Counted from the first letter of the stretch, positions 2,965 to 50,276 are shown. The stretch: DNA of 57,175 nucleotides from a bacterium (GCA_030654225.1 JAURXY010000017.1:1-57175), one strand, 5' to 3'. The notes: generated by a model not told the origin, from the letters alone. Numbers and translations are program-made.

Positions 2965-3034
2965 ATTTTTATATATTTATATAATGTTAAAATTTTTATG
3001 ATATTGTATTTTCATTCAGTGTAATCATGTGAGC

Positions 3035-4102: not shown

Positions 4103-4106
4103 AAAT

Positions 4107-5213
4107 TTAGTGAAAATGTTTACCAGCACCTAAGATTCCAATTATTATTCCAATCATAGCAGTAATAGCCGTAAATATCCAAGCACGCATTGTCACTTTT
4201 GTTTCCGGCCAACCCAAAGCTTCAAAATGATGGTGAATAGGAGCAGCTAAAAAAACTTTTCTTTTAAAAAACTTTTTACTAGTAAGTTGAATTGCGACTG
4301 ATCCAGATTCAAGAATATAAATAAAAACGATTATAAGTAGCACTAGAGCAGAATTTGTGAGCATTGCCACCACGCCCAGTGTTATCCCAAGAGACATTGC
4401 TCCTGTATCGCCCATAAAAAATCTAGCTGGATAGATGTTAAACCACAAAAAAGCTAGAAGCGCTCCGGAAATTGCAGCGCAAAAAGAAGCCAAATCCATT
4501 TTATTTTGTGAAAAAGAAATCAAAGCGAATGAACCAAATGCCATCAGTAATATTCCTCCGTTTAGTCCATCCAGTCCATCAGTTTCATTAGAAGAAATAG
4601 CAGTAAAAAGAATGATAAAAATAAAAAGTGGGATATACCAAAGACCAATGGAAAAATCGCCCATAGCCGGAACATGAATTTTGTCCCAACCAAGTTTATA
4701 GTAGAACCACCAGGCGCCAAGAATTGAAATAATAATTAACCAACCAAAACGTGCCAAAAATCTCATCCCGCCACCTTTGTTTTTTCCGATTCCTCTAACA
4801 CTCATATAATCATCAAATAGTCCTAGGATTCCCGCGGAAACCAAAGCAAAAAGCGGTAGCCATGTTTGCGCGCGACTCAAAAAATCAAGACGAGCAATGA
4901 AAGTAGTTTGAAAAAACTCCGCTACATAAGAAAAAAGGTAGTGCGAAGCGAACATCAAAATCGCCACCGTAAACCATACTAACACTCCACCCATAATCGG
5001 CGTACCAGCTTTGTGTTTGTGCATCTCACTCACATAAGTGAGTTTTTTTCCATCTACTGAGTTTTCTTTTATTTTTACTCCAATTTTATATTTATACAAA
5101 ATGTGCGTCCAAAGAGGAGTGAGGACAAAAGCTAAAACAAAAGCTAAGAAACCTGTAGCTAAAATCTTTATCACATTCATAACATCAGGAATGTTTTGTA
5201 TTTGAGAAATCAT
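4107..5213 (-). CDS. mraY: Phospho-N-acetylmuramoyl-pentapeptide transferase
   Basis: GTPIMGG, NETDGLDGL, FMGDTG, APIHHHFE, multiple TM helices. Confidence 0.95.
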   Translation of the reverse strand: MISQIQNIPDVMNVIKILATGFLAFVLAFVLTPLWTHILYKYKIGVKIKENSVDGKKLTYVSEMHKHKAGTPIMGGVLVWFTVAILMFASHYLFSYVAEFFQTTFIARLDFLSRAQTWLPLFALVSAGILGLFDDYMSVRGIGKNKGGGMRFLARFGWLIIISILGAWWFYYKLGWDKIHVPAMGDFSIGLWYIPLFIFIILFTAISSNETDGLDGLNGGILLMAFGSFALISFSQNKMDLASFCAAISGALLAFLWFNIYPARFFMGDTGAMSLGITLGVVAMLTNSALVLLIIVFIYILESGSVAIQLTSKKFFKRKVFLAAPIHHHFEALGWPETKVTMRAWIFTAITAMIGIIIGILGAGKHFH

Positions 5214-5300
5214 ATAATTCACAGAGCTACACAGAACTTTTCAGAACGACACAGAAACTTTTCTGCGTTATTCTGTTATTTTCTGTGTTTTTTCTGTATT

Positions 5301-6344
5301 TTATCTCCATTCATAATTAGCAAAAGTCCAATCAACTAATTTTTTCATATCTTCCCAACGATTTTCATCATTTAGAATTACTGAGATTATTTTATGTTCC
5401 CCAGTCGGATCAGCTGCTACTGTTAAAAGTGATTTTCCCGCCAGTGGAGTGAATCCAGTTTTGCCACCCAAACAATTTGGCATCTCGCGAAGAAGCATAT
5501 CGGTGTTTTTTAGTTGATGCATATATTTTCCGTCAACCGAATAAATCTGTTCCTCCTCCACTCTCATTATATCCCAAATCAGCTTATATTGTAAGGAATG
5601 GGAAGCAATGCGCGCAATATCATAAGCCGAAGAATAACACTCCGATTCCCTCCCATCAATTTCTAATCCTGAAGGCGTGCAAAAATTAGTATCTTTCAAT
5701 CCTAATTCTTTTGTTTTCATATTCATTAGTTTTACAAAATCTTCTGGAGTTTTAGCCACATGAATTGACAAGGCAGTCGCCGCATCGTTGGCACTATTTA
5801 GTAGCATAGCCTTCAAAAGATTTCGCACTGTTATTTTTTCTCCCGCAAACATTTGATTAGCATTGCAAAAAACACTCGTTGGACAACCCACTACTGTGCC
5901 GTCAACGGTCAGGGCAGTTTTTGTAATAGTCGCAACTTCATCTAAATTTTCCACATTTTCCACGACCAAAATTGCCGTCATAATTTTGGTAAGCGAGGCA
6001 ATTTGTGTTTGCTTCCTGCCTTCTGCATAATGCAAAATTGTCCCGCTATCCGCATCAATTGCCACCGATGCTCCCGACCAAATTTTCACATCAGTATAAT
6101 CAATTCTTCTTTTGGGTATGATATTAGACGGAACTTTTTCCTTTAAAGGAAAAAGATCGCGAGAAACAATATTTTGACTTGCATCAACTTGGCAAGAATT
6201 CACTTGCCCTTTTTGACTTTCTTCACCCAAAACTTGGTTTTGCACTGGTATATTTTTCACCTCATTTTTAATTGTCACTAAATCACCATACATAAATATG
6301 GGCACAAAAGGGACTATTAAAATTGCAAAAATAATATTAAGCAT
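5301..6344 (-). CDS. D-alanyl-D-alanine carboxypeptidase (peptidase S11)
   Basis: SxxK (ASLTK), SxN (SAN), KTG; N-terminal hydrophobic anchor. Confidence 0.9.
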   Translation of the reverse strand: MLNIIFAILIVPFVPIFMYGDLVTIKNEVKNIPVQNQVLGEESQKGQVNSCQVDASQNIVSRDLFPLKEKVPSNIIPKRRIDYTDVKIWSGASVAIDADSGTILHYAEGRKQTQIASLTKIMTAILVVENVENLDEVATITKTALTVDGTVVGCPTSVFCNANQMFAGEKITVRNLLKAMLLNSANDAATALSIHVAKTPEDFVKLMNMKTKELGLKDTNFCTPSGLEIDGRESECYSSAYDIARIASHSLQYKLIWDIMRVEEEQIYSVDGKYMHQLKNTDMLLREMPNCLGGKTGFTPLAGKSLLTVAADPTGEHKIISVILNDENRWEDMKKLVDWTFANYEWR

Positions 6345-6358
6345 AAATAAAAAATATT

Positions 6359-6901
6359 CTAACTTTCAACCACATTTTCTATCCGAGGATCTTGCGATAG
6401 CGTTTCAAAATCTGGCAATTTGGAAATACTGTCAATTCCGAGTTTTTTCAAAAAATCAAAAGATATTTTATAGAGATATGACCTATTGTCCGACGGGTTG
6501 TCCACTCTTTCCAGGAGTCCGCGCATCATCATATTTCGTAAGGTGAATGTGCAGTTGACTCCGCGAATTGCTTCGATATTAATGCGAGAGATTGGTCCAC
6601 GATACGCCACAATCGAAAGCACTTCTAGCGCCGCCTTGCTCAGATTTTCTTGAATTTCACTTTTTACTAATTCGGAAATAATTTCAGAATTTTCCGGTGC
6701 CGTCGCCATTTGAATTTGATCTTCTTTTTTAATGATAATTATTCCACGATTGACTGAATATTCACCTTGCAAAACCATGACGGCATTTTCCACTTCTGAA
6801 ATTTCCACGCCAGTAATTTTGGCAATCCGAGAAATTTTCACCGGCTCACCACTGATAAACAACATGCTTTCAATTATTGATTTTATTTTTTCAAGTTCCA
6901 T
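6359..6901 (-). CDS. scpB: Segregation and condensation protein B
   Basis: LSKAALEVLSIVAYRGPISR...IRGV. Confidence 0.95.
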   Translation of the reverse strand: MELEKIKSIIESMLFISGEPVKISRIAKITGVEISEVENAVMVLQGEYSVNRGIIIIKKEDQIQMATAPENSEIISELVKSEIQENLSKAALEVLSIVAYRGPISRINIEAIRGVNCTFTLRNMMMRGLLERVDNPSDNRSYLYKISFDFLKKLGIDSISKLPDFETLSQDPRIENVVES

Positions 6902-6910
6902 TTTTATAAA

Positions 6911-7615
6911 TTAATTATTTTTTAGGCTTAATTTTATATCTTCAAATAAATCAGTTTGCTCCACTTCGATTAGCCTTTGCTTTATCATTTCAAGCATTGC
7001 CAGAAATGACACAATTACTTCCACCTTATCTGTGGATTTTTCCACTAAATCAGAAAATGACGACTGAATTTTGCTACGCAAAAAATTTTCCAGTTCATTT
7101 ATTTTTTCTTCCAACGTCACCACTTCATTCACAATCTCCTCGGACAGTTTTTCTATGATCGGAATTTCACTTAAAATTGCCAAAAAATGTTTCTTGAAAT
7201 CATAAATATTGAAATCTTCTGGCGGATAGAAAATCGATTTTACGGCGGAGAAACCTTCCCGAGAATAGCAAATTTTTCTACTCTCTGCAATCTTTCCGAG
7301 CCTTATTGAAATTTCCTTGAATTTTCGATACTCTTCTAATTGTTTTGTGAGGTCTTTGATTTCCGCTTCTTCCTCTTCGCTGAATTTTAGCATTGGCAAA
7401 AGCGCCCGCGATTTAATGAGAATGAGACGCGACGCCACCGACAAAAAATCTGCCAAATGTTCCAGATTGATGCTTTGATTGTCTTTGATATGATCCAAAT
7501 ATTCACTGGCCACCCGAGACAAACTGAGTTCCGTTATTTCCAATTTTTCTTTTTGAATAAGCTCCAAAAGCAAATCCATCGGGCCTTCAAATTTTTCCGT
7601 TTTTACTTGATACAT
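6911..7615 (-). CDS. scpA: Segregation and condensation protein A (kleisin)
   Basis: FEGPMDLLL, IKSRALLP, FLAMLEM. Confidence 0.95.
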   Translation of the reverse strand: MYQVKTEKFEGPMDLLLELIQKEKLEITELSLSRVASEYLDHIKDNQSINLEHLADFLSVASRLILIKSRALLPMLKFSEEEEAEIKDLTKQLEEYRKFKEISIRLGKIAESRKICYSREGFSAVKSIFYPPEDFNIYDFKKHFLAILSEIPIIEKLSEEIVNEVVTLEEKINELENFLRSKIQSSFSDLVEKSTDKVEVIVSFLAMLEMIKQRLIEVEQTDLFEDIKLSLKNN

Positions 7616-7617
7616 TT

Positions 7618-8115
7618 TTATTTCTTCTTACTAAAACTTCCTTTAATTATTGTTTCTTTTTTTATATATTCACTGACATTTATCAAAAATGACTGAGTAT
7701 ATTCTCCTGATCCGACATATATTTTCTTGTTTTTGAGTAGCAAGCTATCCACAAAAATTTCCATTTTGAGAAGCTCTGAAAACGGCGGTGTCGCTCCAAC
7801 TTTTCCCAAGAGATTTTTCTTCATCCAAGCTTCCTTAGCGAAATCAATTTTCTTGGAATTTTTCAAACCCTGCTTTTTTCTTTGGACATTTATGACTTTC
7901 AAAAGCTTTTGCTTGTCGAGATTTTTGTTTCCAGGGATTAGTGCCAAAAGATAGTCCTTGTCCGCTCTCATCACCAAAGCCTTCACTACAGTTTTTGGAT
8001 CAACTTTTTCCGTCTGCGCTGTGTCCCAAGCCGTGAAGGTAGTCTTATGCTCGATAATATTAAATTTATACTTTTTATCCTCCAGATATTTTATAATTTT
8101 CTTTGAAATAGGCAT
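7618..8115 (-). CDS. YbaK/ProX-family aminoacyl-tRNA deacylase-like protein
   Basis: H..TFTA..TA, VVKALV, GATPPF pattern. Confidence 0.75.
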   Translation of the reverse strand: MPISKKIIKYLEDKKYKFNIIEHKTTFTAWDTAQTEKVDPKTVVKALVMRADKDYLLALIPGNKNLDKQKLLKVINVQRKKQGLKNSKKIDFAKEAWMKKNLLGKVGATPPFSELLKMEIFVDSLLLKNKKIYVGSGEYTQSFLINVSEYIKKETIIKGSFSKKK

Positions 8116-8198
8116 AAATTTTGATTATTTCTTTACTTATCCACTATATCACAAAAGAAAAATTCAGGAAAATCCTGAATTTGATATTAACCTCTCGT

Positions 8199-10580
8199 CT
8201 ATTTAGCTATAATCTTCCCTCCTTGCCCGATTTGGTCTAATTTTACTGAGAGAAGTTTTGAAATACCTTCTTCGCCCATTGTGACGCCGTATAGAAGTGA
8301 CGCTTGGCGCATAGTTTCGCGATTATGAGTGATTGTGACGAATTGAGTACTTCCGGAAAGCTCGGTAAGAATGCGACCAAAACGGCGGGAGTTTGCTTCG
8401 TCTAGGGCAGCCTCAACTTCGTCCAAAATAGCAAATGGTGGTGGGTTATGAGAAATTATAGCAAACAAAAGTGCCAAGGATGTGAGTGATCTTTCGCCTC
8501 CGGAAAGCATAGAAAGATTGGCAATTCTTTTGCCTGGGGGACAAGCAGAGATATCAATGCCGACATCATTTCTTTCTTCTTCTTTGTTTTCTTCCTCTAT
8601 TATCTCATCCTTTTCACCTTTATTTTCAGCTTCCCCTTCTGCTAATTCGGCCTCTTCTTTGGCTTTACGTTTCGAACTTTGAATTTTAAACTTAGTTAGA
8701 TGGGCAGTTCCTCCGCCAAAAATTATACGGAAATATTTAGAAAATTCTTTGTTTATTTCCTCAAAAGTAGCAGCAAATTTTCCCTCAATTTTTTGATCCA
8801 TTTCTTTCACTACTTCTCGCAGAGACACAATCGCCTCTTCCAAGTCTCTTGATTCACCATCCAAAAATTCAAATCGTTTTTGGGTTTCGTTATATTCATC
8901 AATCACCATCGGATCAATTCCACCGATTTGCTCCATTTTTATTTTTAGCTTATGTATTTCTTGTTCCAAATTTTCTCGATTTATTTCTCCCTCAATAGGA
9001 GCCAACTCCTCAGCTTCTTTTCTTAGTTCGGTCTTTATCTGATTTTTCAAATCTTCCTCTCGCACTTCCACTCTAGCTAAGACAATCTTAGAATCATTAA
9101 ATTTATCCTTAAGCTTATTTAATTCATCCTGTCTTATTCGAAGCTTGCCTTCAATTTCAAAGAATTTCCTACGCTTTTCGCGATCTAAAAGAATTTCCTG
9201 TTGCATTTCTTGATCAGCCAACAATAATTCTTCCTGCGCTTTTCCAATATCCTCTCTAATTTTAATTATTCTTTCTTGAAGTTCAATGAGAACTTTTGAT
9301 TCAATCTTTTCAACTGCTTTCTTTTCTACTGCAACCGGCTTTGGAGCGACCACTGGCACAATTTCTTTTTTGCCTTTTTCAATTTCAACTTTGAGATCAT
9401 AAAGTTGTTGTCCAACCACTCGGGCAAATTCTTTGATATCTTGCAAATCCTCCATCTTTTCTGCTCTTTCAATTTTTTCAATAAGTTTTTCCTGTTCTTT
9501 TTTGATCTCTTCCAGTTTTTCTTTTATATAAGCTCTGTCAACTAATTGCTCTTTGGGCAAACTAATTTCTGTTTCTCTGATCATCTCAACATTTTTTTGT
9601 TTTTCTTTTTCAATTTCAATCCGACCTTCAGTTATGATAAGCTCTCTTTCTAGCTGGTTCAATTTATTTCTTTGCTCTCTTTGCTTGTTTTCTAACTCAA
9701 GATGTTTAGCTTCATTAGTTTGATTTTTTTCTTCTTTTGACTGATCACCAATTTCATCAGTGAGTTTGTCCACTTCCCGTTGCATATTGATGAGAATCCT
9801 GCCGGATTGTTCTTTTTCTTCGTTTAATCGATTTCTCTCCTGCTGAAAATTATGCCATAGGTGAGAAAAAAGTTTTGTTTGTTTTTCTGCCAGTTCTCTC
9901 ATCACACCTTCACTTTCAGCAGCCTTATCAGCTTGACGCTTTAGCATTCGCAAATGCGGTTTTATCTCCTCTATGAGTTCCTTGGCTCTTTCAAGATTTT
10001 GACGAGTAGAATCAAGTTTTCGCAGAGATCTTTCTTTTTTGATTTGATATTGTTTGACGCCAGCAGCATCTTCAATCACTGATCTTCGTTCAAAGGGCGT
10101 AGCATTGAGTACAGCATCAGCCATACCTTGATTAACCACAGCATAACTTTCTTTGCCTACTCCCGCCTTAGCCAAAATATCCACAATGTCTTGCAGACGA
10201 ACTCGCGAACCATTGATCAAATATTCGCTTTCCCCAGAGCGAAAAATTTTTCTCGTCACTGAGACTTCTTCAAACTCCAGTGGAATTCTTTTGTCGCTAT
10301 TGTCTAAATATAGGGTCACATAAGCGCTCCCAAGTCTAGCTTTTTTTCCTGATCCCGCAAAAATAATATCTTCGGATTTTTTCCCCCGCAAATTTTTCAT
10401 TGACTGTTCCCCCATTACCCAGCGAAGCGCATCCGCAATATTTGATTTACCACTACCATTTGGACCAACAATCGCCGTAATACCTTGATTGGTTCCATTT
10501 TTAGAGTCAATTAAAAAGTCGAGGGTAGTTTTCGACGCAAAAGATTTAAAACCTGAAATTTCGAGTTTTTTTAGATACAC
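8199..10580 (-). CDS. smc: Chromosome partition protein SMC (short form)
   Basis: GPNGSGKSN Walker A, LSGGE signature, LDEVEAALD; coiled coils; near scpAB; GTG start. Confidence 0.92.
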   Translation of the reverse strand: MYLKKLEISGFKSFASKTTLDFLIDSKNGTNQGITAIVGPNGSGKSNIADALRWVMGEQSMKNLRGKKSEDIIFAGSGKKARLGSAYVTLYLDNSDKRIPLEFEEVSVTRKIFRSGESEYLINGSRVRLQDIVDILAKAGVGKESYAVVNQGMADAVLNATPFERRSVIEDAAGVKQYQIKKERSLRKLDSTRQNLERAKELIEEIKPHLRMLKRQADKAAESEGVMRELAEKQTKLFSHLWHNFQQERNRLNEEKEQSGRILINMQREVDKLTDEIGDQSKEEKNQTNEAKHLELENKQREQRNKLNQLERELIITEGRIEIEKEKQKNVEMIRETEISLPKEQLVDRAYIKEKLEEIKKEQEKLIEKIERAEKMEDLQDIKEFARVVGQQLYDLKVEIEKGKKEIVPVVAPKPVAVEKKAVEKIESKVLIELQERIIKIREDIGKAQEELLLADQEMQQEILLDREKRRKFFEIEGKLRIRQDELNKLKDKFNDSKIVLARVEVREEDLKNQIKTELRKEAEELAPIEGEINRENLEQEIHKLKIKMEQIGGIDPMVIDEYNETQKRFEFLDGESRDLEEAIVSLREVVKEMDQKIEGKFAATFEEINKEFSKYFRIIFGGGTAHLTKFKIQSSKRKAKEEAELAEGEAENKGEKDEIIEEENKEEERNDVGIDISACPPGKRIANLSMLSGGERSLTSLALLFAIISHNPPPFAILDEVEAALDEANSRRFGRILTELSGSTQFVTITHNRETMRQASLLYGVTMGEEGISKLLSVKLDQIGQGGKIIAK

Positions 10581-12875: not shown

Positions 12876-13733
12876 TTAAAAACTAATTTGGCATAAATTT
12901 TCCATATTTTTGCAAATATATTCGATATCGCCTTTTTCATCTGTTCGCAAAACCTTTATTTTTTTGGCTTTGAGACGCTCTAAGAGTTCTGACGCTGGGT
13001 GGCCATAGGTATTGTTTTTTCCAGAAGATATAATCGCATCAACTGGACCAACTTTGTTCAAAAATTCTGCACTAGTAGCATTTTTTGAACCATGGTGAGA
13101 AATTTTCAGCACTTTTGAGCTTAAATCAAATTTATCACTAAACAAAGCGCTCTCCTTTTCCAATGGGAAATCCCCCGTAAAAAGAAAAGAATTTTGGCCA
13201 TAAGTCAGCTTTGCCACGATGCTGTCAGCGTTGGTATCCTTCGGTTTATTTACTAGAATAGAATTGGGATAAATAATTGCCAAATTAGCATCTTTGATTT
13301 TTATATTCATCCCCTCCTTACCTTTCAATCTTTCAATTTTTTTATTTTCAATTATTTCTAGATAATTTTTATACACTTGTGAATCGTTCTCAGCGCTATT
13401 GTCAATCACTTTACCAATCTTATAATTTTTCATCACATCAATGAGTCCGCCGATATGGTCTTGATCAGGGTGAGTCGCTATAACTATTTCAATTTTTCTG
13501 TCCCAAAATGGAATATATTTTCCCAATTTCTCCATTTCCTTTTGTCCGCTCGGTCCACCATCAATCAAGATTTGATTTTGACCAAGTGAGATCATAATGG
13601 CGTCACCTTGCCCAACATCAAAAAAAATAATCTTTAGTTTTTGATTTTGAGAATGCCAAATAACACCAGCTAAAATAAGGCTGATAAGCAATAAAAATAA
13701 TAAAATATAATAAAAATATTTTTTAGAAAACAT
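12876..13733 (-). CDS. ComEC-like metallo-beta-lactamase-fold hydrolase
   Basis: FDVGQGDA, THPDQDHIGG, LFTGD, HHGS, YGHP. Confidence 0.92.
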   Translation of the reverse strand: MFSKKYFYYILLFLLLISLILAGVIWHSQNQKLKIIFFDVGQGDAIMISLGQNQILIDGGPSGQKEMEKLGKYIPFWDRKIEIVIATHPDQDHIGGLIDVMKNYKIGKVIDNSAENDSQVYKNYLEIIENKKIERLKGKEGMNIKIKDANLAIIYPNSILVNKPKDTNADSIVAKLTYGQNSFLFTGDFPLEKESALFSDKFDLSSKVLKISHHGSKNATSAEFLNKVGPVDAIISSGKNNTYGHPASELLERLKAKKIKVLRTDEKGDIEYICKNMENLCQISF

Positions 13734-13740
13734 ATCAACT

Positions 13741-13830
13741 TTGTCATGCTGAATTTACCGTGCCTCGCCGGCAGGCGGGTTTCAGCATCTATTTTAGAAT
13801 AGAGATCCTGAAACAAGTTCAGGATGACAA
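13741..13830. repeat. REP-like palindromic element with nested palindrome
   Basis: terminal IR ttgtcatgctgaa / ttcaggatgacaa (12 of 13 bp); nested accgtgcctcgccggcaggcgggt at 13757-13780; overlaps comEC stop. Confidence 0.7.
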
Positions 13831-15288
13831 TTCATTATTCTTTTTTAAAAAATAGATTGTCCCTGTTAAAATTATATACCAAATCACCACTCCCCACCAC
13901 GCAATTTTCATTTCAACTGAAGCATATTTCAAACTAGCCAGATAATTTATGGTGATTGTTTCATATTTTAACGGCAGATAAGTCAACCAAGAAAAAATGA
14001 TTGCGATTGGTTCGAAAACAAAACTAAACATAATTGCCACAAAACCCAAAAGCATTGTGAGTGGGATAATAGGCAAAATTAGGATATTCGCCAAAAGTGA
14101 AATAAGCGACAGCGTTCCAAAATTAAACATAATAATTGGCAAAACAAAAATCTGCGCGGAAAGTGAAAGGAAAAGAATTTCTGCAACTGTAGAGACGAGG
14201 CAGTGCCTCGTCTCTACAAGATGCAAAAAATAATTTTCAAAAAATGGATAGAGATAAACTATGCCGATTGTCGCTAGAAAAGAAAGTTGAAAACCGATGT
14301 CGAAGCGCAAAAGGAGTGGATTAGCAAGAAGCATCACGCAAGCAGAAAACAAAATCGCATTCTGAGCATTTGCCAATCTTCCATTTTTTATCGCCCAAAT
14401 CAAAAGTACGCCCATCAGTCCCGCTCGCACTGCCGAAGCACTGAGCCCTGTGAGAATCACAAAAAGAATAATGCCAGTCACTGCAAACCAAAAAGCTTGC
14501 CGTCGCCACAGTCCTAAAAATATTCCGAGCATCATTAGGTACTCTGCAATGATCGTCACATTATAGCCAGACACTGCTACAATGTGCGTCATCCCCGTGC
14601 GTGAAAAATTATTTTTCACCTCTTTTGACAATTGGTTACTTCCACCCAAAAGAAGACCCGAGAGAAGTCCGGACTCTGGCGCGGGAATCAACTGCTTTAT
14701 ATTTTCATTAAATTTATTTTTGATTTTAATGAGAATCGCCAAAAATCTATTTCCCTTATTTTCATTTAATTTTTCTATTTTTTGATTTTTGCATTCATAA
14801 AAAATTCCATCTTTCGCCAAATACATTTGATAGTCAAAACTGTCATCAAAATTTTTCGGCCTTTCCAGCTGGCAATTTATTTTTAGCCTATCGCCATAAT
14901 TGTATTTTTCATAAATACTAGCATTAAGCAAAAATTTTTCCGTCCTGTTGTCAGCCGGAACAAGAATTAGTTGCTGAATTTTTTCTTTAAGCACCGGCTC
15001 TTTGGAAATCATAACTACGCCCGAAAAATTCTGCTTGTCTGCATTTATATTTTTTATTTTTTCTAATCTCAAGTTTGTGAGCCAAAAACCACAAACAAAA
15101 AATCCCAAAACAAAACCAAAAAGAACGACTTTTTTATTTTCCCAAAATACTGCCACAATAGAAAGCGTGAAAACAAAAGAAAAATAAAATAAACTAGCAC
15201 TTAATATCTGCGGATAATAAAAAGAAGCCGTCATCACGCCTCCGATAAAAGACAAGGAAAGGATAAAAAATATGCGAGATTTTTCCAT
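13819..15288 (-). CDS. comEC: ComEC/Rec2 competence channel domain protein
   Basis: GMTHIVAVSGYN, SAVRA, GFQLSF; many TM helices. Confidence 0.92.
   Translation of the reverse strand: MEKSRIFFILSLSFIGGVMTASFYYPQILSASLFYFSFVFTLSIVAVFWENKKVVLFGFVLGFFVCGFWLTNLRLEKIKNINADKQNFSGVVMISKEPVLKEKIQQLILVPADNRTEKFLLNASIYEKYNYGDRLKINCQLERPKNFDDSFDYQMYLAKDGIFYECKNQKIEKLNENKGNRFLAILIKIKNKFNENIKQLIPAPESGLLSGLLLGGSNQLSKEVKNNFSRTGMTHIVAVSGYNVTIIAEYLMMLGIFLGLWRRQAFWFAVTGIILFVILTGLSASAVRAGLMGVLLIWAIKNGRLANAQNAILFSACVMLLANPLLLRFDIGFQLSFLATIGIVYLYPFFENYFLHLVETRHCLVSTVAEILFLSLSAQIFVLPIIMFNFGTLSLISLLANILILPIIPLTMLLGFVAIMFSFVFEPIAIIFSWLTYLPLKYETITINYLASLKYASVEMKIAWWGVVIWYIILTGTIYFLKKNNELSS
14188..14218. repeat. GTAG-type REP palindrome in frame within comEC
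   Basis: perfect 15-bp arms tgtagagacgaggca-g-tgcctcgtctctaca; near-identical copy at 37684-37712. Confidence 0.85.
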
Positions 15289-42330: not shown

Positions 42331-44286
42331 CTATGTTTGTTCTGCCACGCAAACTTCTTTGATTTCATTTTTCAGATCTCCCATTTCTTTTTTCAAAAAA
42401 CCATTCCATTCTTCCATTTCCATTATTTCCGGATTGATAATATTTTCCTCTTCCATTTCAACTGCACTTGAAACTTCTGGCCATTTAGTTCTCTCAGGAG
42501 CTTTGCCAAAAGCCATTTCAACCGTTTCGCGTGGACCAAAAAATTCTCGCTTGGCTGATTTGTTTTTTGGAGCGGAAATTTCAAATGAATTAACCACACC
42601 CTCATTTCCATAATCAAGATTTTTGTCCCAGCCATCGCTTTGAAAAAAACCGAATTGATCTTTCAAAATTTGATAGAGATAGGCTCGATCAGTTGCTACT
42701 GTGCTTTCTTTGATGAAATTATTCCAAATATAATAATCCAATTCTTTTTCATAGCCTTCCATTTTCCATTGCGAAATTACATTTTCCAAAGCTCGAATAG
42801 AAAGAACATTTTCTTGGAGAAAATATTTTGTCGAACGACCACCAGCTTCTTTGAAATAATAAGCCCCGTCGATTTCTTTGCCGGCAAAAACATTTTGAAT
42901 TAGCCGAGCTGATTTTGCCAAATTCCAGAGTTTTTGTTCACTGCCCTTGGGAATTTCCATATTCCCATTTTTGTCCATAATATCCGCTAAAATAAGATGA
43001 AATAATTCATTTTCCTTGCCTGCTGAGTCTTCTAAGCTACCCTCCGTTTCTTGTGGCAAATAATCATATTCAATTTTGTGAAGTCGAGAAAGAAAAGCTG
43101 GATCCATATCTTGCCGATCAACATATTTTTCTTGACCTTGATTCAAATTTCCCGTCATCATTATTCCAAAACCTTCCTTGATTTCAATTTCTCTTCCGCT
43201 ATCTTGTTGAATGTTTATCTTATCCCCAACTTTTCTGGTTAGAATATGATTTAAACTGATAAGTACTTCGTGCGGAATCGCATTGACTTCATCGATAATG
43301 ATTATTCTGCCTTCTTCCATCGCTTGATAGATTGGACCCATAAAAAAATCTGACACGGTTGAACCGGTTTTTTCATCTACTGTCAAAACCTGATGTCCAT
43401 AAAATTCCGCCTGCGAAATGTTTTTTGAACCGGAAATAATCAAAGCGCTTCCTTTCAATTCACATAATTTTTGTAATTCTAATTCTTTTACAGCTATTAA
43501 ATTATTCAAAGAACCGTCATCATATTTTTTTTCTTTCTTTTGCTTTATTAAAATGTCTTCTAGCTCTTGTTTTTTTTCTAATATATCCGGATTATTCTCT
43601 GAAATATATTTTTTTGCCGTATGCATAGCGAGTTCCGATTTTCCACTTCCAAGATGACCATAAATCAAAATTGGTTTGTTAGCTTGCAAATGGACTTCAA
43701 TATCTTCCATTTGCTCTTTGACATAATCAGTTTCCACAATTTTTCCATCCTCCAATTCTTTTTTATATTCTTCTAATTGCTTCAAGTGCAATCCGAAATA
43801 ACTTTCCGGGCTAAGTTCCAGTGATTTTTCTCGCAAATTTTGATTTTCACCCAATTCATCACGAACTTCATCCAACGCTTCCAGTTCTTCTCCACTAGGC
43901 GCTCCGTCAAAGCCTTTCAAAATTTCCACTTTTTCCAAAAGCAATCCTTTTCTTTCCATTTGAATAGCTTTTTCATAGCGAAGGGCTTTGATTAAATTTT
44001 CTTTTCGCAGTTCAACCAATTCTCGCTCCGGCGAATTTTCTTCACCCAAAATTTTCTCTGCTTCTGTTTCAAAAACATTTTCTCTTTCCAGCGCTTTTTT
44101 GGCGACTCGCCCTCTTTTGGATTTTTCCAAAATTTCTTCTTCGGATTTTTCTTGCCTTTCTTCTTTGGGAATTTTTGTTTCGCGATACATCATCTGTGAG
44201 GCTTTTTGGGCTTGCCGTTTGTTTTTTTCCGCCTCATTGACATTTTCTTCCACTTTTTTCCATTGTTCAAAATTTTGTGATTCCAT
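42331..44286 (-). CDS. MoxR/CbbQ/dynein-related AAA+ ATPase with coiled-coil N-terminus
   Basis: Walker A GHLGSGKS, Walker B IIIIDEVN, MTGNLN, MDPAFLSRL. Confidence 0.85.
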   Translation of the reverse strand: MESQNFEQWKKVEENVNEAEKNKRQAQKASQMMYRETKIPKEERQEKSEEEILEKSKRGRVAKKALERENVFETEAEKILGEENSPERELVELRKENLIKALRYEKAIQMERKGLLLEKVEILKGFDGAPSGEELEALDEVRDELGENQNLREKSLELSPESYFGLHLKQLEEYKKELEDGKIVETDYVKEQMEDIEVHLQANKPILIYGHLGSGKSELAMHTAKKYISENNPDILEKKQELEDILIKQKKEKKYDDGSLNNLIAVKELELQKLCELKGSALIISGSKNISQAEFYGHQVLTVDEKTGSTVSDFFMGPIYQAMEEGRIIIIDEVNAIPHEVLISLNHILTRKVGDKINIQQDSGREIEIKEGFGIMMTGNLNQGQEKYVDRQDMDPAFLSRLHKIEYDYLPQETEGSLEDSAGKENELFHLILADIMDKNGNMEIPKGSEQKLWNLAKSARLIQNVFAGKEIDGAYYFKEAGGRSTKYFLQENVLSIRALENVISQWKMEGYEKELDYYIWNNFIKESTVATDRAYLYQILKDQFGFFQSDGWDKNLDYGNEGVVNSFEISAPKNKSAKREFFGPRETVEMAFGKAPERTKWPEVSSAVEMEEENIINPEIMEMEEWNGFLKKEMGDLKNEIKEVCVAEQT

Positions 44287-44346
44287 ATATTTTTTCAAAA
44301 AAAATTAAAAGATTTAATTCAAAATAAATTCTCAAACTCCCAAAGC

Positions 44347-45306
44347 CTAAGTTAATTCAAAACTACGGGAGAGACGGCACCCAAGGAAGACATCGGAAAG
44401 GCCGAGAGCATGCGCATCCACACAGAGCTGGCGAGCAACCGGATCCCAGTCAGCATCGACGACCCGAGAAGCAGAGCACGATTTTGGTAGCCAAGTCCAG
44501 CTTTTTTCATCTAAATGATTATTAGTTTTCTGAAAATATTGTCGTTGTAAAATTAAATATTCATTTAGAGATAGTCCCTCAGTTTTGATTTGATTTCCGC
44601 TTAACTCGAAATTAATTGGAATAGGCTGATTGTTTTCAACTCTTTCTTGGATTTGTTCTTCGCTTAAGCCAGAAAGTTGCATGATGTTTTTGCCGAGAGT
44701 TTGTTTGAGATATGGATTGGTGTTTTCATCTTTAAGAATATTTTGATCGGAATGTGTGAGAATGATTTTTGTTTTTTTACTTTCAGATGTTTTAGCTCCA
44801 GTAAAACCTCCGCCGTTTTTAAAATTATTTGATTGCCAAGTAGTAACATAGCCATCACCATCAGTCATTTTTTCATTGAGTTCTTCGCTGGTTGGCAGTT
44901 TTTTTGGAATAATGAGAATTTGGTCATAACCATACAGTGCCATTTCTTTTTGAATTTCAAGTTTGTGAAGTCTCAAAATTTGCTTGACTTCTTGTTCGTT
45001 GAATTCTGGAATTTTATGCTCTTTGTAGAATTTTTTTTGCCATTGGATTTCTTTTTCCAAATCAATTTCAATATCCTTGTCTTTGTTAGTTTCATTGGTT
45101 GTTTCGGGATTGATAAACTTTGCAGTGATCTTTTTGGGAGTGATTTTTTCTTTGAGAGCTTGCAATTTTTCTTCAATTTCTTTTCGAAGTTCTTTGGTTT
45201 TTTCGAGATTGCCTGATTTGATGGATTTTTCCAATTCAAATTCAAACTTTTGTTGGAGTTTTTCAAGTTCTTGGTATTCAGTTTTGAGGAGTTGACACTC
45301 AGACAT
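44347..45306 (-). CDS. DGR target protein 1 (coiled-coil N-terminus, C-terminal CLec-type variable domain)
   Basis: contains VR1; ends WTWL...LGCRLSRSF; paralog of 49217-50191. Confidence 0.9.
   Translation of the reverse strand: MSECQLLKTEYQELEKLQQKFEFELEKSIKSGNLEKTKELRKEIEEKLQALKEKITPKKITAKFINPETTNETNKDKDIEIDLEKEIQWQKKFYKEHKIPEFNEQEVKQILRLHKLEIQKEMALYGYDQILIIPKKLPTSEELNEKMTDGDGYVTTWQSNNFKNGGGFTGAKTSESKKTKIILTHSDQNILKDENTNPYLKQTLGKNIMQLSGLSEEQIQERVENNQPIPINFELSGNQIKTEGLSLNEYLILQRQYFQKTNNHLDEKSWTWLPKSCSASRVVDADWDPVARQLCVDAHALGLSDVFLGCRLSRSFELT
44359..44479 (-). repeat. DGR variable repeat VR1
   Basis: 121 bp, ungapped match to TR; 17 mismatches, all at TR adenines. Confidence 0.97.
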
Positions 45307-45307
45307 A

Positions 45308-47452
45308 TTATAATCTTACACCAGATAAGTATTTTTTCAAAGCTTGGGTTATGGCGGGAATCAAGTTGGCTATTTCCTCACCAATCACTTCTCCCTGTTT
45401 TTCTTTTCGCCCAGCATTCCACACTTCATCAAAAATCTTCTTATCTTCATCGCTAACTGCACCTATCTGAAAGGCTCTCTCTATCACTCCCGACTCAATC
45501 AATTTATCCACTGCCTTTTTTGAAGCCTCAGAATCAGAAGATCCGCCATCAGTTATTTCAAAAACAATTTCCATGGTCTTTTTCTGTGAAATTTTTTGCA
45601 AGTCTTCAGCTGAAAAAGATTTTTGAATTTCTCCCAACGCCTTATCGTCATAAGTATACCCAATAGTATTGTCCAGTTTTTCAAAAAGTTTAATCGTCTC
45701 TATTCGTTCATCACTTATCCTAGATTCTTTTCGCAATTTTTTTATCTTCTGGGCATCATCTCCAAAAATCCATACCTCCGTATCAACTTCCAACTTGGAT
45801 TTTGTTTGTGATCTCGTTCGATTGAGTTGAGTGTTGAATTCACGAAGTGATGACAAAATCAAAACTACACATTGTTGCAAAATATGCCGTTTTTTTTCAT
45901 CCATCGATCCAGACATATCGCCCACCAGTCTGATGTTGATTCTTTCCGGCATTTGCACCAGTTTTTCTTTGGAAACTATTCGTTCCATCACTCGAACATC
46001 TTCAAATTTTTTCTCTTGAATTTTCGGCCACTCCTCAATCACTTTTTGAACATTCATTTCCGTTCCGGTTTTGAAATATCCTTCTTTTTCTCTTTTCATT
46101 TCTCGACTGGAACCAAAAATAATTTTTTGCCAAAGTTTGGAAAGTTGTTGCAAGTATGGCTCGACTTGGGCTTCAATTTTTTTGAAATTTATAAACTTAT
46201 TTTGATCAATGCCATTTTTTTCGCACCAAGATTTGTCTATCTCTGCTTGTGCTTCATCAGCTTTTTCCTGTGGTGTTTTGTTTTCTTGCGCCTGCGCTTT
46301 GGCTTTTCTGGCCTCTGCCTCTTTTTTGTCATCTTCGTTTTTGTCCATCCAATTTTTGATATCCTCCTCGGAAATCTGATCAGGATTATTTTTGTCATAA
46401 TCTTGATACTCCTCATCAAACGGATTACCTGACTCTCCCTCGCCTTCTCCTTTTTGCGGTTGACCCTCTTGTTTCTCCGGTTTTTTCGGCTCCCATTCAT
46501 TCAAATCTTTGGCCAAAAGTTCTGCAAAAATCGGCTCCAATGTTTTTTGCAACACAAAATGTCTTTGACTAGCAAGAGTATCACGATTTTTTTTCGGCTT
46601 GATGAAACTATCCACAATTTCTTTGGGCGAATATTGCCTGCCTTGAAATTCAATTTTTCGCTTCATTATTTCTGCCACTTCTTCATTCAACACAACACTT
46701 TCATCTTTTACCATTTCTTCCCGCAATAATTTATAGACAAACTGAAGATGTCTTGGCAATGCGGAATAATCAGTTTTAGCAAAAAGTTTTTCTTGATATA
46801 GTCTTTTTGTTTCTTGCCCGCCATTGGCTTTTTCTTCAAAGGCGGGAGCTTTTCTGGCAACATTATTATTGTCATTTATATCATCAAAAATATTGTAGAA
46901 AGTATGGTGAATTTTATAAGCCGAGCGTTCCACCGCATTCATTGTTTTGCCATCTGGTTTTTTTGGATTGAGCGGTTTTTGTTTTTTCAAATTTTCCACA
47001 AATTCAGGATCACTTTGTCCATATTTCTCTTCCCATTTCTTCAAAATAATTCCACCAGTTTTTTTAGCTTGACTTCTGATATATTCAAAATTTTTCATTA
47101 CTCCACTCGCGTCTGCATCCAAATCACGAAAATGTTCCAATTCATGCAAACATCCCCATAATATCTGCTCTTTGGAAAAACCTTTTTCCGAAAACCACTT
47201 GCCATCCAAATTCACTTCACCTTTTTCCAAATCAATATAAAATCCATCAGAAATTTTAAAGTTTAGAGAAACATCTTTAGCAAAAGTCGTAAAAAATCTT
47301 CGATGCGAATCGACAAATTCTTGGGCTTCTTGGCGATATCTTTCTGCTTCCTGATTCATTTTCTCTTTTTCTTTTTCCGTTTCACCAAAAGATTCGTCTT
47401 TTTGCGTATCAATTTTTTTTATCGCTGGCAAATTTTCAATAAATTGTTTCAT
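45308..47452 (-). CDS. vWA (MIDAS) protein with N-terminal HExxH metallopeptidase-like domain
   Basis: LHELEH; charged linker; DMSGSM and ITDGGS. Confidence 0.8.
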   Translation of the reverse strand: MKQFIENLPAIKKIDTQKDESFGETEKEKEKMNQEAERYRQEAQEFVDSHRRFFTTFAKDVSLNFKISDGFYIDLEKGEVNLDGKWFSEKGFSKEQILWGCLHELEHFRDLDADASGVMKNFEYIRSQAKKTGGIILKKWEEKYGQSDPEFVENLKKQKPLNPKKPDGKTMNAVERSAYKIHHTFYNIFDDINDNNNVARKAPAFEEKANGGQETKRLYQEKLFAKTDYSALPRHLQFVYKLLREEMVKDESVVLNEEVAEIMKRKIEFQGRQYSPKEIVDSFIKPKKNRDTLASQRHFVLQKTLEPIFAELLAKDLNEWEPKKPEKQEGQPQKGEGEGESGNPFDEEYQDYDKNNPDQISEEDIKNWMDKNEDDKKEAEARKAKAQAQENKTPQEKADEAQAEIDKSWCEKNGIDQNKFINFKKIEAQVEPYLQQLSKLWQKIIFGSSREMKREKEGYFKTGTEMNVQKVIEEWPKIQEKKFEDVRVMERIVSKEKLVQMPERINIRLVGDMSGSMDEKKRHILQQCVVLILSSLREFNTQLNRTRSQTKSKLEVDTEVWIFGDDAQKIKKLRKESRISDERIETIKLFEKLDNTIGYTYDDKALGEIQKSFSAEDLQKISQKKTMEIVFEITDGGSSDSEASKKAVDKLIESGVIERAFQIGAVSDEDKKIFDEVWNAGRKEKQGEVIGEEIANLIPAITQALKKYLSGVRL

Positions 47453-48464
47453 ATAAACATTCGCTTATTAGTTTGTTCTTCAAATTATACGAATTGCAAT
47501 GCTTGAGTAATCCGCAATATGAATTGAACACTTTGGAAAAATCTCGACTGGCAATTTCGCCCTTTTCAAATCTCTCCGCTGTATGAAAAATATTTTTCAA
47601 CATTCTTCTTTTTGTTTTCCGGCGAAGCAAAATCGCATCAGACAAAACGATATACCCGCAAAAATCAATCCCCCACTTCAATTTTCGGAAAGTTATTTTT
47701 TCTTTGGGAATTTTCAATAATAGTTTATTCTCCACGAATATTTTTGCTTTTCTGGCAAACTCAACCATCCTCTCTTTATTATAGTCTAAAATAACAAAAT
47801 CGTCATTATATCTCACATAGTGTCTAACTTTCAGCTTTTTTGCGACAAAATGATCCAGTTCATTGAGATAAATGTTAGCAAAAATCTGGCTGGTAATATT
47901 TCCCAGCGGAATGCTTTTGCTTGGCTTGCAATGAAAACTATCGATAATTTCCCAAATAATTTTTCTGATTCTTTCGTCGCAAATATTTTTGCAAATGATA
48001 TCGAAAAGAATGTTATGATCAATATTTTCAAAATATTTTCTCACATCCAGTTTCGCGCCGTAGCATCGACCAAAATTTCTTTTCGCAATATCTTGCGAAA
48101 AAATCTGCAGTTGCTTCACTGCGAGGTGTGATCCTTTCCCAACTCGCGAAGAATAGGAGTATTCTATGAAAATTGGCTCGAATGAGTCTGAAAGATAATC
48201 ATAAATAATTTGATGCACTATCCTATCCCTAATATCCGCTTTGTGAATATCGCGTTTTTTCGGATCTGAAATTCTAAAAAATTCATATGCCAGATGACGA
48301 TAATTTCCAGTACTCAAATCTCTATGCAACAAAAATAGATTGTCTTCAATATTTCTTTCAAAAAAAATCACTTCCTGCTTTTTCTCCTTACCCACCTTGA
48401 AAACCCGCCACGCGCGAAAGATGTTCTCGATATTAATTAATTTATCAAAATCATTATGAACCAT
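47436..48464 (-). CDS. DGR reverse transcriptase
   Basis: RDRIVHQ, GKGSH, IPLGNITSQIFANIYL (SQ motif), YVRYNDDF, GIDFCGY; no maturase or endonuclease domain. Confidence 0.96.
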   Translation of the reverse strand: MVHNDFDKLINIENIFRAWRVFKVGKEKKQEVIFFERNIEDNLFLLHRDLSTGNYRHLAYEFFRISDPKKRDIHKADIRDRIVHQIIYDYLSDSFEPIFIEYSYSSRVGKGSHLAVKQLQIFSQDIAKRNFGRCYGAKLDVRKYFENIDHNILFDIICKNICDERIRKIIWEIIDSFHCKPSKSIPLGNITSQIFANIYLNELDHFVAKKLKVRHYVRYNDDFVILDYNKERMVEFARKAKIFVENKLLLKIPKEKITFRKLKWGIDFCGYIVLSDAILLRRKTKRRMLKNIFHTAERFEKGEIASRDFSKVFNSYCGLLKHCNSYNLKNKLISECLYETIY

Positions 48465-48827
48465 AAAAATTATGAGCAAATAGAAATTCCAGTTATCAAA
48501 AAACTCTACGAATTATATAGACTGACACATTCTGTGATAATGAAATTTCCTAAACATGAAAAATACAGCTTGGGAGAAAAATTGGAATGTATTATCTTGG
48601 ATTCGCTGGAACTCATTATTTTTGGAAACTACCAGCCAAAAAATTTCAAAGAAGGATATATTCTCAAGGCTAATGCAAAAATAGAAATTTTGAAAATTCT
48701 ATTTCGCCTTGCTTTTTCAATCAAAGCTCTGGATGATCCGTCCTATCTCAAAACCCAACAAGCCTTGCAAGAAATCGGCAAAATGCTGGGTGGCTGGTTG
48801 AAATATTTGAAATCTGAGCAGAAATGA
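48456..48827 (+). CDS. avd: DGR accessory variability determinant (bAvd-like four-helix bundle)
   Basis: 123 aa; FPKHEKYSLG and EIGKMLGGW; lies between RT and TR. Confidence 0.9.
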   Translation: MNHKNYEQIEIPVIKKLYELYRLTHSVIMKFPKHEKYSLGEKLECIILDSLELIIFGNYQPKNFKEGYILKANAKIEILKILFRLAFSIKALDDPSYLKTQQALQEIGKMLGGWLKYLKSEQK

Positions 48828-48947
48828 AAACTACGGGAGAGACGGCACCCAAGGTTGTCATTGGAATTGTCGAGATCATTCGCATTCACATTGAGCTGGC
48901 GATCATCCGGATTCCAGTTAGCATTGACGACCCGAGAAGCAGAGCAC
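48827..48947 (-). ncRNA. DGR template repeat (TR)
   Basis: 121 bp; VR-frame translation CSASRVVNANWNPDDRQLNVNANDLDNSNDNLGCRLSRSF, rich in AAY codons. Confidence 0.96.
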
Positions 48948-49216
48948 CGCCTCTAGAAAAATTTTTCTTTTTCAATTTCGAGCGTAGAAGTTTTTCCAAA
49001 TTTATCAGGACAACACCATTTGTCCGAAAGAAAAATTGTAGTTTTACATTAATGATTTTTCACTCACTCTCACACAATTTTTCGTTGTATGACTCTGGAA
49101 AAATAAAAAATCTGTTTCGGCAAACCACTGCTGAAAACTTTTTTCAACTGATTATACGAGCCGAGGGATAAAAAAATAAAAATTAATTTAAAAATAAATT
49201 CTCAAGCTCCCAAAGC

Positions 49217-50191
49217 CTAAGTTAATTCAAAACTACGGGAGAGACGGCACCCAAGGTTGCCATCGGAATGGCCGAGACCATACGCAGACACATCGAGCCG
49301 GCGAGCATCCGGATACCAGTGAGCAACGACGACCCGAGAAGCAGAGCACGATTTCGGAAGCCAAGTCCATCCGTTTTCATCTAAATGTTTTTGCTGATTG
49401 TTTTTTTCAAAATATTGCCGTTGGAAAATAAGATATTCATTGAGAGAAAGTCCTTCAGCTTGGATTTTTTTAGTTTGGTTATTGATTCGAGTTTCAAAAT
49501 TAATTGGGATCGGCTGGTTTGTTCGAATTTTTTCTTGGATTTCATCTTCAATTAAGTTGGAAAGTTGCATAATGTTTTTTCCAAGAGTTTGTTTGGCAAA
49601 AAAGTTAGCGTCTGGATTTTCATAAATATTTTGATCGGAATGTGTGAGAATGATTTTGGTTTTTCGGCTTTCGGTTGTGGCTCCGGCGAAACCTCCGCCT
49701 GTTTTGAAATCATTTGATTGATAAGTAGCGGTCGTATTTGGCATTGATTCAATCAGTGTCTGATTGAGGTTTTCCGTTATTGGCAAGTTTTCTGGAATAA
49801 TGAGAATTTGGTCATAACCATACATTGCCATTTCTTTTTGGATTTCAAACTTGTGAAGTCTCAAAATTTGCTTGACTTCTTGTTCGTTGAAACTTAACTT
49901 ATGTTCTTTATAGAAAGCTTTCTGCCATTGGATTTCTTTTTCCAAATCAATTTCAATATCCTTATCTTTGTTTTCAGTTTTGGTTGTTTCGGGATTGCTG
50001 AATTTTGCAATGATCTTTTTGGGAGTGATTTTTTCTTTGAGAGTCTGAAGCTTTTCTTCAATTTCTTGTTTCAATTCTTTGGTTTTTTCGAGATTGCCGG
50101 ATTTGATGGATTTCTCCAATTCCAACTCAAACTCTTGTTGGAGTTTTTCGAGTTCTTTGTATTCAGTTTTGAGGATGAGGCATCCGGACAT
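49217..50191 (-). CDS. DGR target protein 2 (paralog of target 1)
   Basis: contains VR2; start moved to MSGCLILK by alignment to MSECQLLK. Confidence 0.9.
   Translation of the reverse strand: MSGCLILKTEYKELEKLQQEFELELEKSIKSGNLEKTKELKQEIEEKLQTLKEKITPKKIIAKFSNPETTKTENKDKDIEIDLEKEIQWQKAFYKEHKLSFNEQEVKQILRLHKFEIQKEMAMYGYDQILIIPENLPITENLNQTLIESMPNTTATYQSNDFKTGGGFAGATTESRKTKIILTHSDQNIYENPDANFFAKQTLGKNIMQLSNLIEDEIQEKIRTNQPIPINFETRINNQTKKIQAEGLSLNEYLIFQRQYFEKNNQQKHLDENGWTWLPKSCSASRVVVAHWYPDARRLDVSAYGLGHSDGNLGCRLSRSFELT
49229..49349 (-). repeat. DGR variable repeat VR2
   Basis: 121 bp, ungapped match to TR; 15 mismatches, all at TR adenines. Confidence 0.97.
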
Positions 50192-50195
50192 AAGA

Positions 50196-50276
50196 TTATT
50201 TCTCCAAACTAAATTCAATCAAGGATTTTTTGATGACTTCGTCATCTACTTCAAATCCTGGCAGATATTCAACTTT
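50196..50276 (-). pseudogene. Probable C-terminal remnant of an AbiEii-like nucleotidyltransferase
   Basis: start-less frame KVEYLPGFEVDDEVIKKSLIEFSLEK* right after the 87-aa antitoxin-like gene; family match is from recollection. Confidence 0.45.

Follow-up and report, generated by a model that had tools for sequence, protein, structure and literature searches.

Organization of the locus

We analysed a 57175-nt stretch of bacterial DNA (GCA_030654225.1, JAURXY010000017.1:1-57175; hereafter the window) and found at positions 44347 to 50191 what is very probably a complete chromosomal DGR (diversity-generating retroelement) of the Patescibacteria, or CPR (candidate phyla radiation), type. Read along the - strand, the cassette runs in the order target gene 2 with its variable repeat (VR2), a 269-nt spacer, the TR (template repeat), avd, the RT (reverse transcriptase) gene, a gene for a 714-aa protein, target gene 1 with VR1, and the gene for an AAA_5 ATPase (Table 1). 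The only + strand gene of the cassette is avd. An initial annotation of the stretch had described it as one template serving two separately diversified targets, and this description held, with the RT, Avd, the TR and two paralogous C-terminal VRs all being present.

Table 1 Features of the cassette, with positions counted from the first letter of the window
Feature	Position	Strand	Size	Remarks
TR	48947..48827	-	121 nt	25 adenines
VR1	44479..44359	-	final 40 codons of target 1	17 differences from TR, all at TR adenines
VR2	49349..49229	-	final 40 codons of target 2	15 differences from TR, all at TR adenines
DGR RT	48479..47436	-	347 aa from TTG 48479	first ATG at 48464
Avd	48456..48827	+	123 aa	opposite in strand to TR and RT; Pfam bAvd PF22296
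Target gene 1	45306..44347	-	319 aa	VR1 at 3′ end
Target gene 2	50191..49217	-	324 aa from ATG 50191	alternative TTG start at 50218; VR2 at 3′ end
714-aa protein	47452..45308	-	714 aa	between RT and target 1; family with HExxH and a vWA-like (von Willebrand factor A-like) domain
AAA_5 (MoxR-like) ATPase	44298..42331	-	655 aa	directly downstream of target 1; Pfam AAA_5, E 1.7e-11
Stem-loop after VR1	44331..44351	-	short	predicted fold; overlaps target 1 stop codon, just 3′ of VR1
Stem-loop after VR2	49201..49221	-	9 pairs, 3 G-C	predicted fold; T-rich tail; overlaps target 2 stop codon

One template repeat and two variable repeats

The reverse complement of 48826-48947 was aligned with the same frames at offsets of -4468 and +402. 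As the initial annotation had claimed, the TR aligned without gaps over 121 nt to both VRs, and the 17 and 15 differences were reproduced, so that 32 out of 32 fell on TR adenines. The sole difference at another base was found at the 122nd position (48826), which lies beyond the end of the repeat, and the claim that no non-adenine mismatch exists inside the 121-nt repeat therefore stands as well. Similarity between the TR and the VRs ended abruptly on both sides, and an independent repeat search recovered the same three copies. With 25 adenines in 121 nt, the hypergeometric probability that every mismatch would fall on an adenine was 4.9e-15 for VR1 and 6.1e-13 for VR2.

When read in the frame of the targets, the TR encodes a peptide that includes RVVNANWNPDDRQLNVNANDLDNSNDNLGCRLSRSF, and its variable core consists of nine AAY codons, five GAY codons and one CAG codon with a total of 24 adenines. 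The 25th adenine belongs to an AGT codon within the invariant 3′ part. All TR adenines stand at the first (ten) or the second (15) position of a codon, and the third position has none. Since NNY and CNG codons cannot be turned into stops, no stop codon is reachable, and the peptide diversity that the TR offers comes to 15^9 x 4^6 = 1.57e14. Both the codon count and the figure of approximately 1.6e14 peptides given in the initial annotation were thus confirmed, and the two VR peptides that it quoted are correct by translation. The mutable adenines are those of the - strand, which codes for the RT and the two targets, and they appear as thymines on the + strand. No long - strand ORF (open reading frame) contains the TR, and an overlapping + strand ORF (48824-49171, 115 aa) gave no family match.

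Comparison of the three copies with one another, and of the target genes outside them, gave an indication of how the VRs came to be as they are. VR1 and VR2 differ from each other at 15 positions. At least one VR is altered at 20 of the 25 TR adenines and both are altered at 12; the same base is present in both VRs at five of these 12 sites, where approximately four would be expected by chance, which fits independent rounds of diversification of VR1 and VR2. At the non-adenine positions, in contrast, each VR matches the TR at 96 out of 96. Upstream of the VRs the two target genes are identical at 673 of 816 aligned nucleotides (82.5%), with 37 gap columns in addition, and at 97 of the 120 nt immediately before the repeat; downstream, the flanks of VR1 and VR2 are identical to each other at 51 of 59 positions and unlike the flank of the TR. 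Under ordinary divergence approximately 17 differences would be expected in the 96 non-adenine VR positions, and none was observed. Thus the complete identity at these positions, despite 82.5% identity elsewhere, shows that the VRs were overwritten from the TR after the paralogues had diverged. The invariant ends of the repeat amount to 22 nt on the 5′ side and 28 nt on the 3′ side.

RT and Avd

The RT carries the motifs IPLGNITSQIFAN (IPLGNITSQ) and YNDD. RTs of the DGR lineage have the signature [ILV]GxxxSQ where those of group II introns have QGxxxSP, together with YxDD. The protein matched Pfam RVT_1 with an E-value of 3.9e-17 and the PADLOC 'RT' model at 2.1e-41. Its best match among solved structures was 8ub7_A (E 3.4e-33), with the group II intron RTs at 6e-17, and the IPLGNITSQ and YNDD motifs align to IPIGSLTSQ and YMDD of 8ub7_A. 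We take 8ub7 to be the RT of the Bordetella phage DGR, for which a literature search for 8UB7 gave no confirmation.

Avd scored 60 bits against the Pfam family bAvd (PF22296, cut-off 40) and had no match when searched with phmmer against PDB sequences. Its gene fills the entire interval between the TR and the RT gene. The divergent avd (+) and RT (-) genes overlap by 9-24 nt at their 5′ ends (48456-48479), and a like arrangement was seen in 15 related loci. Because of this overlap, any transcript running from the TR to the RT gene crosses the whole avd gene in antisense.

The target proteins

Target 2 is a paralogue of target 1, with 72% identity. Neither was assigned to a Pfam or NCBIfam family above the cut-off. 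In an alignment of 36 sequences of the target family, the scaffold residues Trp287, Leu294, Val296 and Ala298 and the stretch LGCRLSRSF were conserved, and the hypervariable columns were exactly the TR-adenine codons (codons 284, 286, 288, 290, 291, 293, 295, 297, 299, 300, 302, 303, 305, 306 and 307).

An AlphaFold model of target 1 had a pLDDT (predicted local distance difference test) of 90.8 and showed a globular body preceded by a helical hairpin at the N terminus (residues 1-57); residues 117-319 modelled alone reached 94.7. Since a structure search with the whole model was dominated by the N-terminal hairpin, residues 117-319 were searched separately against 48161 PDB representative chains. 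Most of the best 50 matches had FGE-like (formylglycine-generating enzyme-like) or C-type-lectin folds. The C-terminal domain of Bd2740 gave a Z-score of 7.3 (107 aligned residues, root-mean-square deviation 3.2), the highest among the matches listed, and EgtB (Z 6.9, 133 residues, 3.7) and CarF (Z 6.9, 137 residues, 4.0) were likewise near the top. Three variable proteins of other DGRs were also among the matches, namely TvpA (2y3c; Z 6.8, 148 residues, 4.0), Mtd (1yu0; Z 6.1, 120 residues, 3.5) and TaqVP (5vf4; Z 5.0, 134 residues, 4.0). On account of the make-up of this match list and the coverage of the full domain, target residues approximately 117-319 model as an FGE-like C-type-lectin fold. 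In the model the variable codons alternate along two predicted strands and then fill the following loop, a layout that would have the look of a diversified binding face. When the sequences were judged by eye, no signal peptide or membrane segment was seen in the targets, nor a hydrophobic N-terminal stretch in target 1.

Genomic setting and related loci

The genes flanking the cassette are housekeeping genes (malic enzyme, YceG, PCMT, MgsA, a thioredoxin-reductase-like protein, UppS, a polyprenyl synthetase and GroEL), and homologues of the targets were found in Moranbacteria and other Patescibacteria. These two observations argue for a cellular DGR rather than a phage element. Neither a tRNA nor an Rfam family was detected in the window. 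The genome is Patescibacteria-like, with 1.006 Mb spread over 34 contigs and a completeness of 95.5%. Remote VRs, which the initial annotation had suggested looking for, were not found: a search with the TR over the whole 1.0-Mb assembly returned VR1, VR2 and a weaker match on contig C15, which is the TR of a separate DGR, and a search of the same genome with a profile of the target domain gave no further copy.

This second DGR of the same genome (G000) is found at C15:4945-6880, which corresponds to positions 1056-2991 of locus L004. Between its VR (L004:1056-1169) and TR (L004:1446-1559) there are 15 differences, of which 14 fall on TR adenines; its avd occupies 1566-1907 in antisense, and its RT (2053-2991) is 43.5% identical to that of the window. 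Its target has no BLAST similarity to the targets of the window.

For comparison we used 48 related loci from Patescibacteria genomes together with the window. An RT match was found in 16 of the 48 loci, and in 15 of these 16 the RT gene is immediately preceded by avd on the other strand, giving the order TR-(avd)-RT. A homologue of the 714-aa protein follows the RT in 11 of the 16. Adenine-biased TR/VR pairs were present in 15 of the 48 loci, which with the window makes 16 sequences and 28 VRs; 395 of the 418 mismatches in these 28 VRs were at adenines, a figure biased upward by the screen, which retained a pair only if 75% or more of its mismatches were at adenine. Two or three VRs per TR were seen in nine of the 16 sequences. 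In this clade it is therefore usual for one template to serve two or three targets.

The predicted stem-loops that follow VR1 and VR2 are of the same sequence class and weak, and nothing corresponding to them is present at the TR. For the relatives, a hairpin conserved behind the VRs was considered and rejected, since the mean folding energy of 28 VR flanks was -4.8 kcal/mol compared with -6.7 kcal/mol for 16 TR flanks. A motif, TAG(G)CTTTG..AGCTTG, stands directly after the stop codon of VR-bearing genes in 14 of the 28 VR flanks and in none of the 16 TR flanks, with sites in the window at 44331-44358 and 49201-49228 (both -) and in VR flanks of loci L010-L054. The motif was defined post hoc, after the data had been viewed, and is a lead only; it may mark the recipient site.

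Proposed mechanism and possible present activity

By analogy with the DGR of Bordetella phage, we infer the following RNA, cDNA and homing steps. A - strand RNA would be transcribed across the TR, probably continuing in antisense through avd into the RT gene. The RT, acting with Avd, would copy the TR RNA into cDNA and place random bases opposite template adenines, and this cDNA would then take the place of the ~120 nt at the 3′ end of either target gene, with the invariant repeat ends as guides. In this way as many as 15 codons could be recoded, all on a single face of the putative C-type-lectin-fold domain, with stops being impossible.

We also infer that the element is active today, with which the identity at 96 of 96 non-adenine positions in both VRs and the intact frames of the RT and Avd are consistent. 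Among the sequencing runs, the two best contained 0.21 and 0.20 of the sequence words sampled, and every run contained less than half. In a relative of ~93% identity, detected in two wastewater runs, VR1 differs at 44412, 44423, 44429, 44435, 44438 and 44445, and among the differences listed all six are at TR-adenine positions.

Several observations weigh against the assignment of the locus as a complete and active DGR with lectin-fold targets. Avd reached 77.9 bits with the NCBIfam model DivGenRetAVD, just below its cut-off of 80. For the targets, the Z-scores of the fold matches were middling (5.0-7.3), and Foldseek returned no PDB match at E <= 0.001 with the model of either the whole target or the domain. 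The final 28 nt of the repeat are the same in the TR, VR1 and VR2, so that inside the repeat IMH (the sequence for initiation of mutagenic homing) and its TR counterpart IMH* are indistinguishable, and a stem-loop comparable with those of the window was not predicted at most VR flanks of the relatives. The sequencing data consist of assembled contigs of relatives, in which VR polymorphism within a population is not seen. For the ~93%-identical relative, variation at adenine sites only is not proven beyond the differences listed, and stretches that the contigs leave uncovered carry no information.

The nature of these data leaves room for a fossil DGR, one that diversified both targets in the past and now holds frozen VR alleles. 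A Logan contig from groundwater run X3 points in the same direction, as it joins 47453 to 49192 via 46 other letters, the 1.74-kb TR-avd-RT core being gone. That relative keeps the order target - vWA gene - target and, being matched at 85% likeness, may be another organism; the core can evidently be lost. A long-dead element, however, should have accumulated ordinary substitutions in its TR or VRs, whereas not one non-adenine difference was found in 2 x 96 positions against a paralogue divergence of 17.5% elsewhere, and both the RT and Avd have retained open frames and intact motifs. We therefore regard a fossil as improbable.

DGRs were first found in phages, and 8ub7, the closest relative of the RT among solved structures, is taken to be the Bordetella phage RT. 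Both points speak for a phage or prophage element by which a receptor-binding tail protein is switched, in the manner of Bordetella phage BPP-1. Such an origin is very unlikely here in view of the housekeeping flanks, the lack of any tRNA in the window, the linked genes (for an AAA_5 ATPase and a vWA-like protein), the targets, which by eye have no signal peptide or membrane segment, and the lack of any phage-family Pfam match in 18 scanned proteins, PHROGs not having been searched. As the targets are paralogues, of which gene conversion could keep parts alike, one might also ask whether the repeats are ordinary paralogous or gene-converted copies with an adenine pattern that arose by chance. 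The hypergeometric probabilities given above, the third copy that lies outside any gene and beside the RT and Avd, and the same adenine pattern in 15 related loci leave this explanation with a negligible probability, and the computed alignment refutes it for practical purposes. The evidence thus favours a cellular DGR that diversifies two targets from one template.

Linked ATPase and vWA/HExxH genes

The 714-aa protein belongs to a family in which an N-terminal HExxH motif (His103, Glu104 and His107) is invariant, as are Asp512, Ser514, Ser516, Thr600 and Asp635 of a C-terminal MIDAS-like (metal-ion-dependent adhesion site-like) motif DxSxS..T..D. The family profile matched the vWA domains of TRAP with an E-value of 1.2e-5. 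Pfam VWA (PF00092) matched four of 25 family members, the window protein not being one of them, and Pfam detected neither an HExxH-region domain nor a vWA domain in the latter. Homologues are labelled 'vWA domain-containing' by their source annotations. Judged from these motifs, the family is possibly a metallopeptidase-vWA fusion.

Homologues of the ATPase are labelled 'MoxR-like ATPase' by JGI (Joint Genome Institute), and the Walker-type GxxGxGK and DE columns are invariant in the family; a phmmer search against PDB sequences gave nothing. The ATPase is linked to the cassette and is not a component of the DGR. No PADLOC model matched the targets, the vWA protein or Avd, and the ATPase matched only 'mad8', at 1.4e-5.

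In all eight relatives examined (L017, L019, L021, L023, L025, L027, L037 and L042), one of the DGR targets is encoded as an in-frame ORF, 811-977 aa long from stop to stop, in which an AAA_5 ATPase module is joined to the lectin-fold target domain. In the window the ATPase and target 1 are encoded by separate adjoining genes. A prediction of the complex between the ATPase and target 1 gave weak support, with a score of 0.46 compared with 0.00 for the best control; at least 78% of contacts were shared among the runs, and the partner had a pLDDT of at least 82. In the benchmark of this procedure 58 of 80 solved complexes and two of 110 mismatched pairs attained the mark, and scores of 0.60 or less included only seven of the 80 solved complexes along with both of the mismatches that had passed.

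A further arrangement was observed in another genome, G086 (L057, G086:C2:1-19000; ORFs 2741-8664 and 12984-15073), where strong homologues of the vWA/HExxH and AAA_5 genes are found. They are flanked by eight paralogues with the N-terminal helical hairpin of the target, six of which are ~310-321 aa in length and have homologous bodies with divergent C-terminal ends. One of the ~310-321-aa proteins shares 26.5% identity with target 1 across 211 residues (E 6e-5). In these 19 kb no RT or Avd match was found, and the stretch was not screened for a TR. It looks like a germ-line array of paralogues where other lineages use a DGR.

The eight out of eight ATPase-target fusions, the vWA gene after the RT in 11 of 16 loci, the G086 array and the weak complex prediction led us to consider that the targets are exchangeable recognition subunits of an intracellular machine, which the MoxR-like AAA+ ATPase and the vWA/HExxH protein would make up, and not surface adhesins. 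We put this forward tentatively and hold it to be rather doubtful. Such a machine may be widespread in CPR bacteria and DPANN archaea, with its subunit diversified either by a DGR or by germ-line paralogue arrays. Its distribution speaks against it: among 201 sampled Patescibacteria genomes the target profile was found in five and the vWA profile in six, and only the window's own genome holds both. Nor was an effector identified, no peptidase, TIR or adaptor family being reported in the neighbouring genes. In more general terms, the lectin fold, the fusion or adjacency of the ATPase and vWA genes and the paralogue array of G086 suggest intracellular sensing over host attachment. If the machine does exist, organisms that are regarded as having few defence systems would possess a module resembling an immune receptor.

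Comparison with known systems

The locus shares with the DGR of Bordetella phage BPP-1 (mtd-avd-TR-brt) the RT, Avd, the TR and a VR placed C-terminally within a C-type-lectin fold, as well as an AAY-rich TR with adenine-specific changes. It differs in being chromosomal, in having two targets, and in the position of avd, which stands between the TR and the RT gene and is read from the opposite strand. Furthermore, the 3′ ends of the TR and VRs are identical here, with no distinct IMH* visible inside the repeat, and a weak stem-loop is predicted in place of a GC-rich inverted repeat. The targets of the window also look cytoplasmic, unlike that of BPP-1.

Compared with TvpA of Treponema denticola, the targets have the same FGE-like C-type-lectin variable domain by model, and in both cases one TR serves several targets. 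The targets are adjacent here and remote in Treponema, for which remote DGR targets are cited by Wu et al. (2018, PMC5758913; this and the other surveys compared below are cited for the sections available to us). In contrast with the TvpA type, the locus lacks a lipoprotein or secretion signal as well as an HRDC accessory gene, and Pfam detects no sequence similarity.

DGR-diversified FGE/C-type-lectin proteins have been described within MoxR-vWA conflict systems in cyanobacteria and Thiohalocapsa (Kaur et al., 2020, PMC7159879; Dore et al., 2024, PMC10907252). As in these VMAP-ternary systems, an FGE/C-type-lectin DGR target is encoded here next to genes for a MoxR-like AAA+ ATPase and a putative vWA protein. 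However, the RT lineage is different, and the vWA protein is not fused to the variable domain and carries HExxH instead. Scans of the neighbouring genes turned up no VMAP protein, peptidase or TIR effector, or adaptor domain, no VMAP profile having been used. The locus is therefore not filed under VMAP-ternary systems. According to Dore et al. (2024, PMC10907252), CPR targets are often fusions of a C-type lectin with an AAA domain, and most CPR RTs fall in a separate clade.

In the sections available of Roux et al. (2021), the DGRs of Patescibacteria form a clade of their own and their targets are without recognizable membrane or other domains. The role of such signal-less and domain-less CPR targets is a question posed in that study, and it has now become more testable. 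We found no paper on a linkage of DGRs with MoxR in Patescibacteria or on DGRs of Moranbacteria; the vWA/MoxR linkage in CPR bacteria may be covered by Paul et al. (2017) or in supplements. Since it has two targets, enzymes that are intact and no mismatch at any base but adenine, the locus is a clean and complete member of a class known to be abundant in candidate-phyla bacteria, and would be a good reference for reconstitution.

The closest comparison is with the CPR DGRs surveyed by Wu et al. (2018, PMC5758913). There, architecture B3, TR-(avd)-RT, makes up 90% of that survey's CPR set; two targets are present in 50 of 372 DGRs, and one DGR with three diversified targets is figured. IMH and IMH* are identical in some of the DGRs, and GC-rich inverted repeats were found in only 127 of the 372. 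The CPR VR classes are of unknown fold in the sections available, with class UVR4 occurring in proteins with a Midasin/AAA motif. The window shows the same order of TR, reverse-strand avd and RT gene as these B3 DGRs, in a host that is likewise a member of the candidate phyla with a small genome, and the same presence of more than one target and of targets without a Pfam domain; as far as those sections go, nothing essential differs. Thus both the two-target DGR and its TR-(avd)-RT layout are already described for CPR bacteria. What is added here is modest, and consists of an FGE-like C-type-lectin fold, by model, for a target family of a kind whose fold is left open in those sections, and of the link, by fusion and neighbourhood, to a MoxR-like ATPase and a vWA/HExxH protein.

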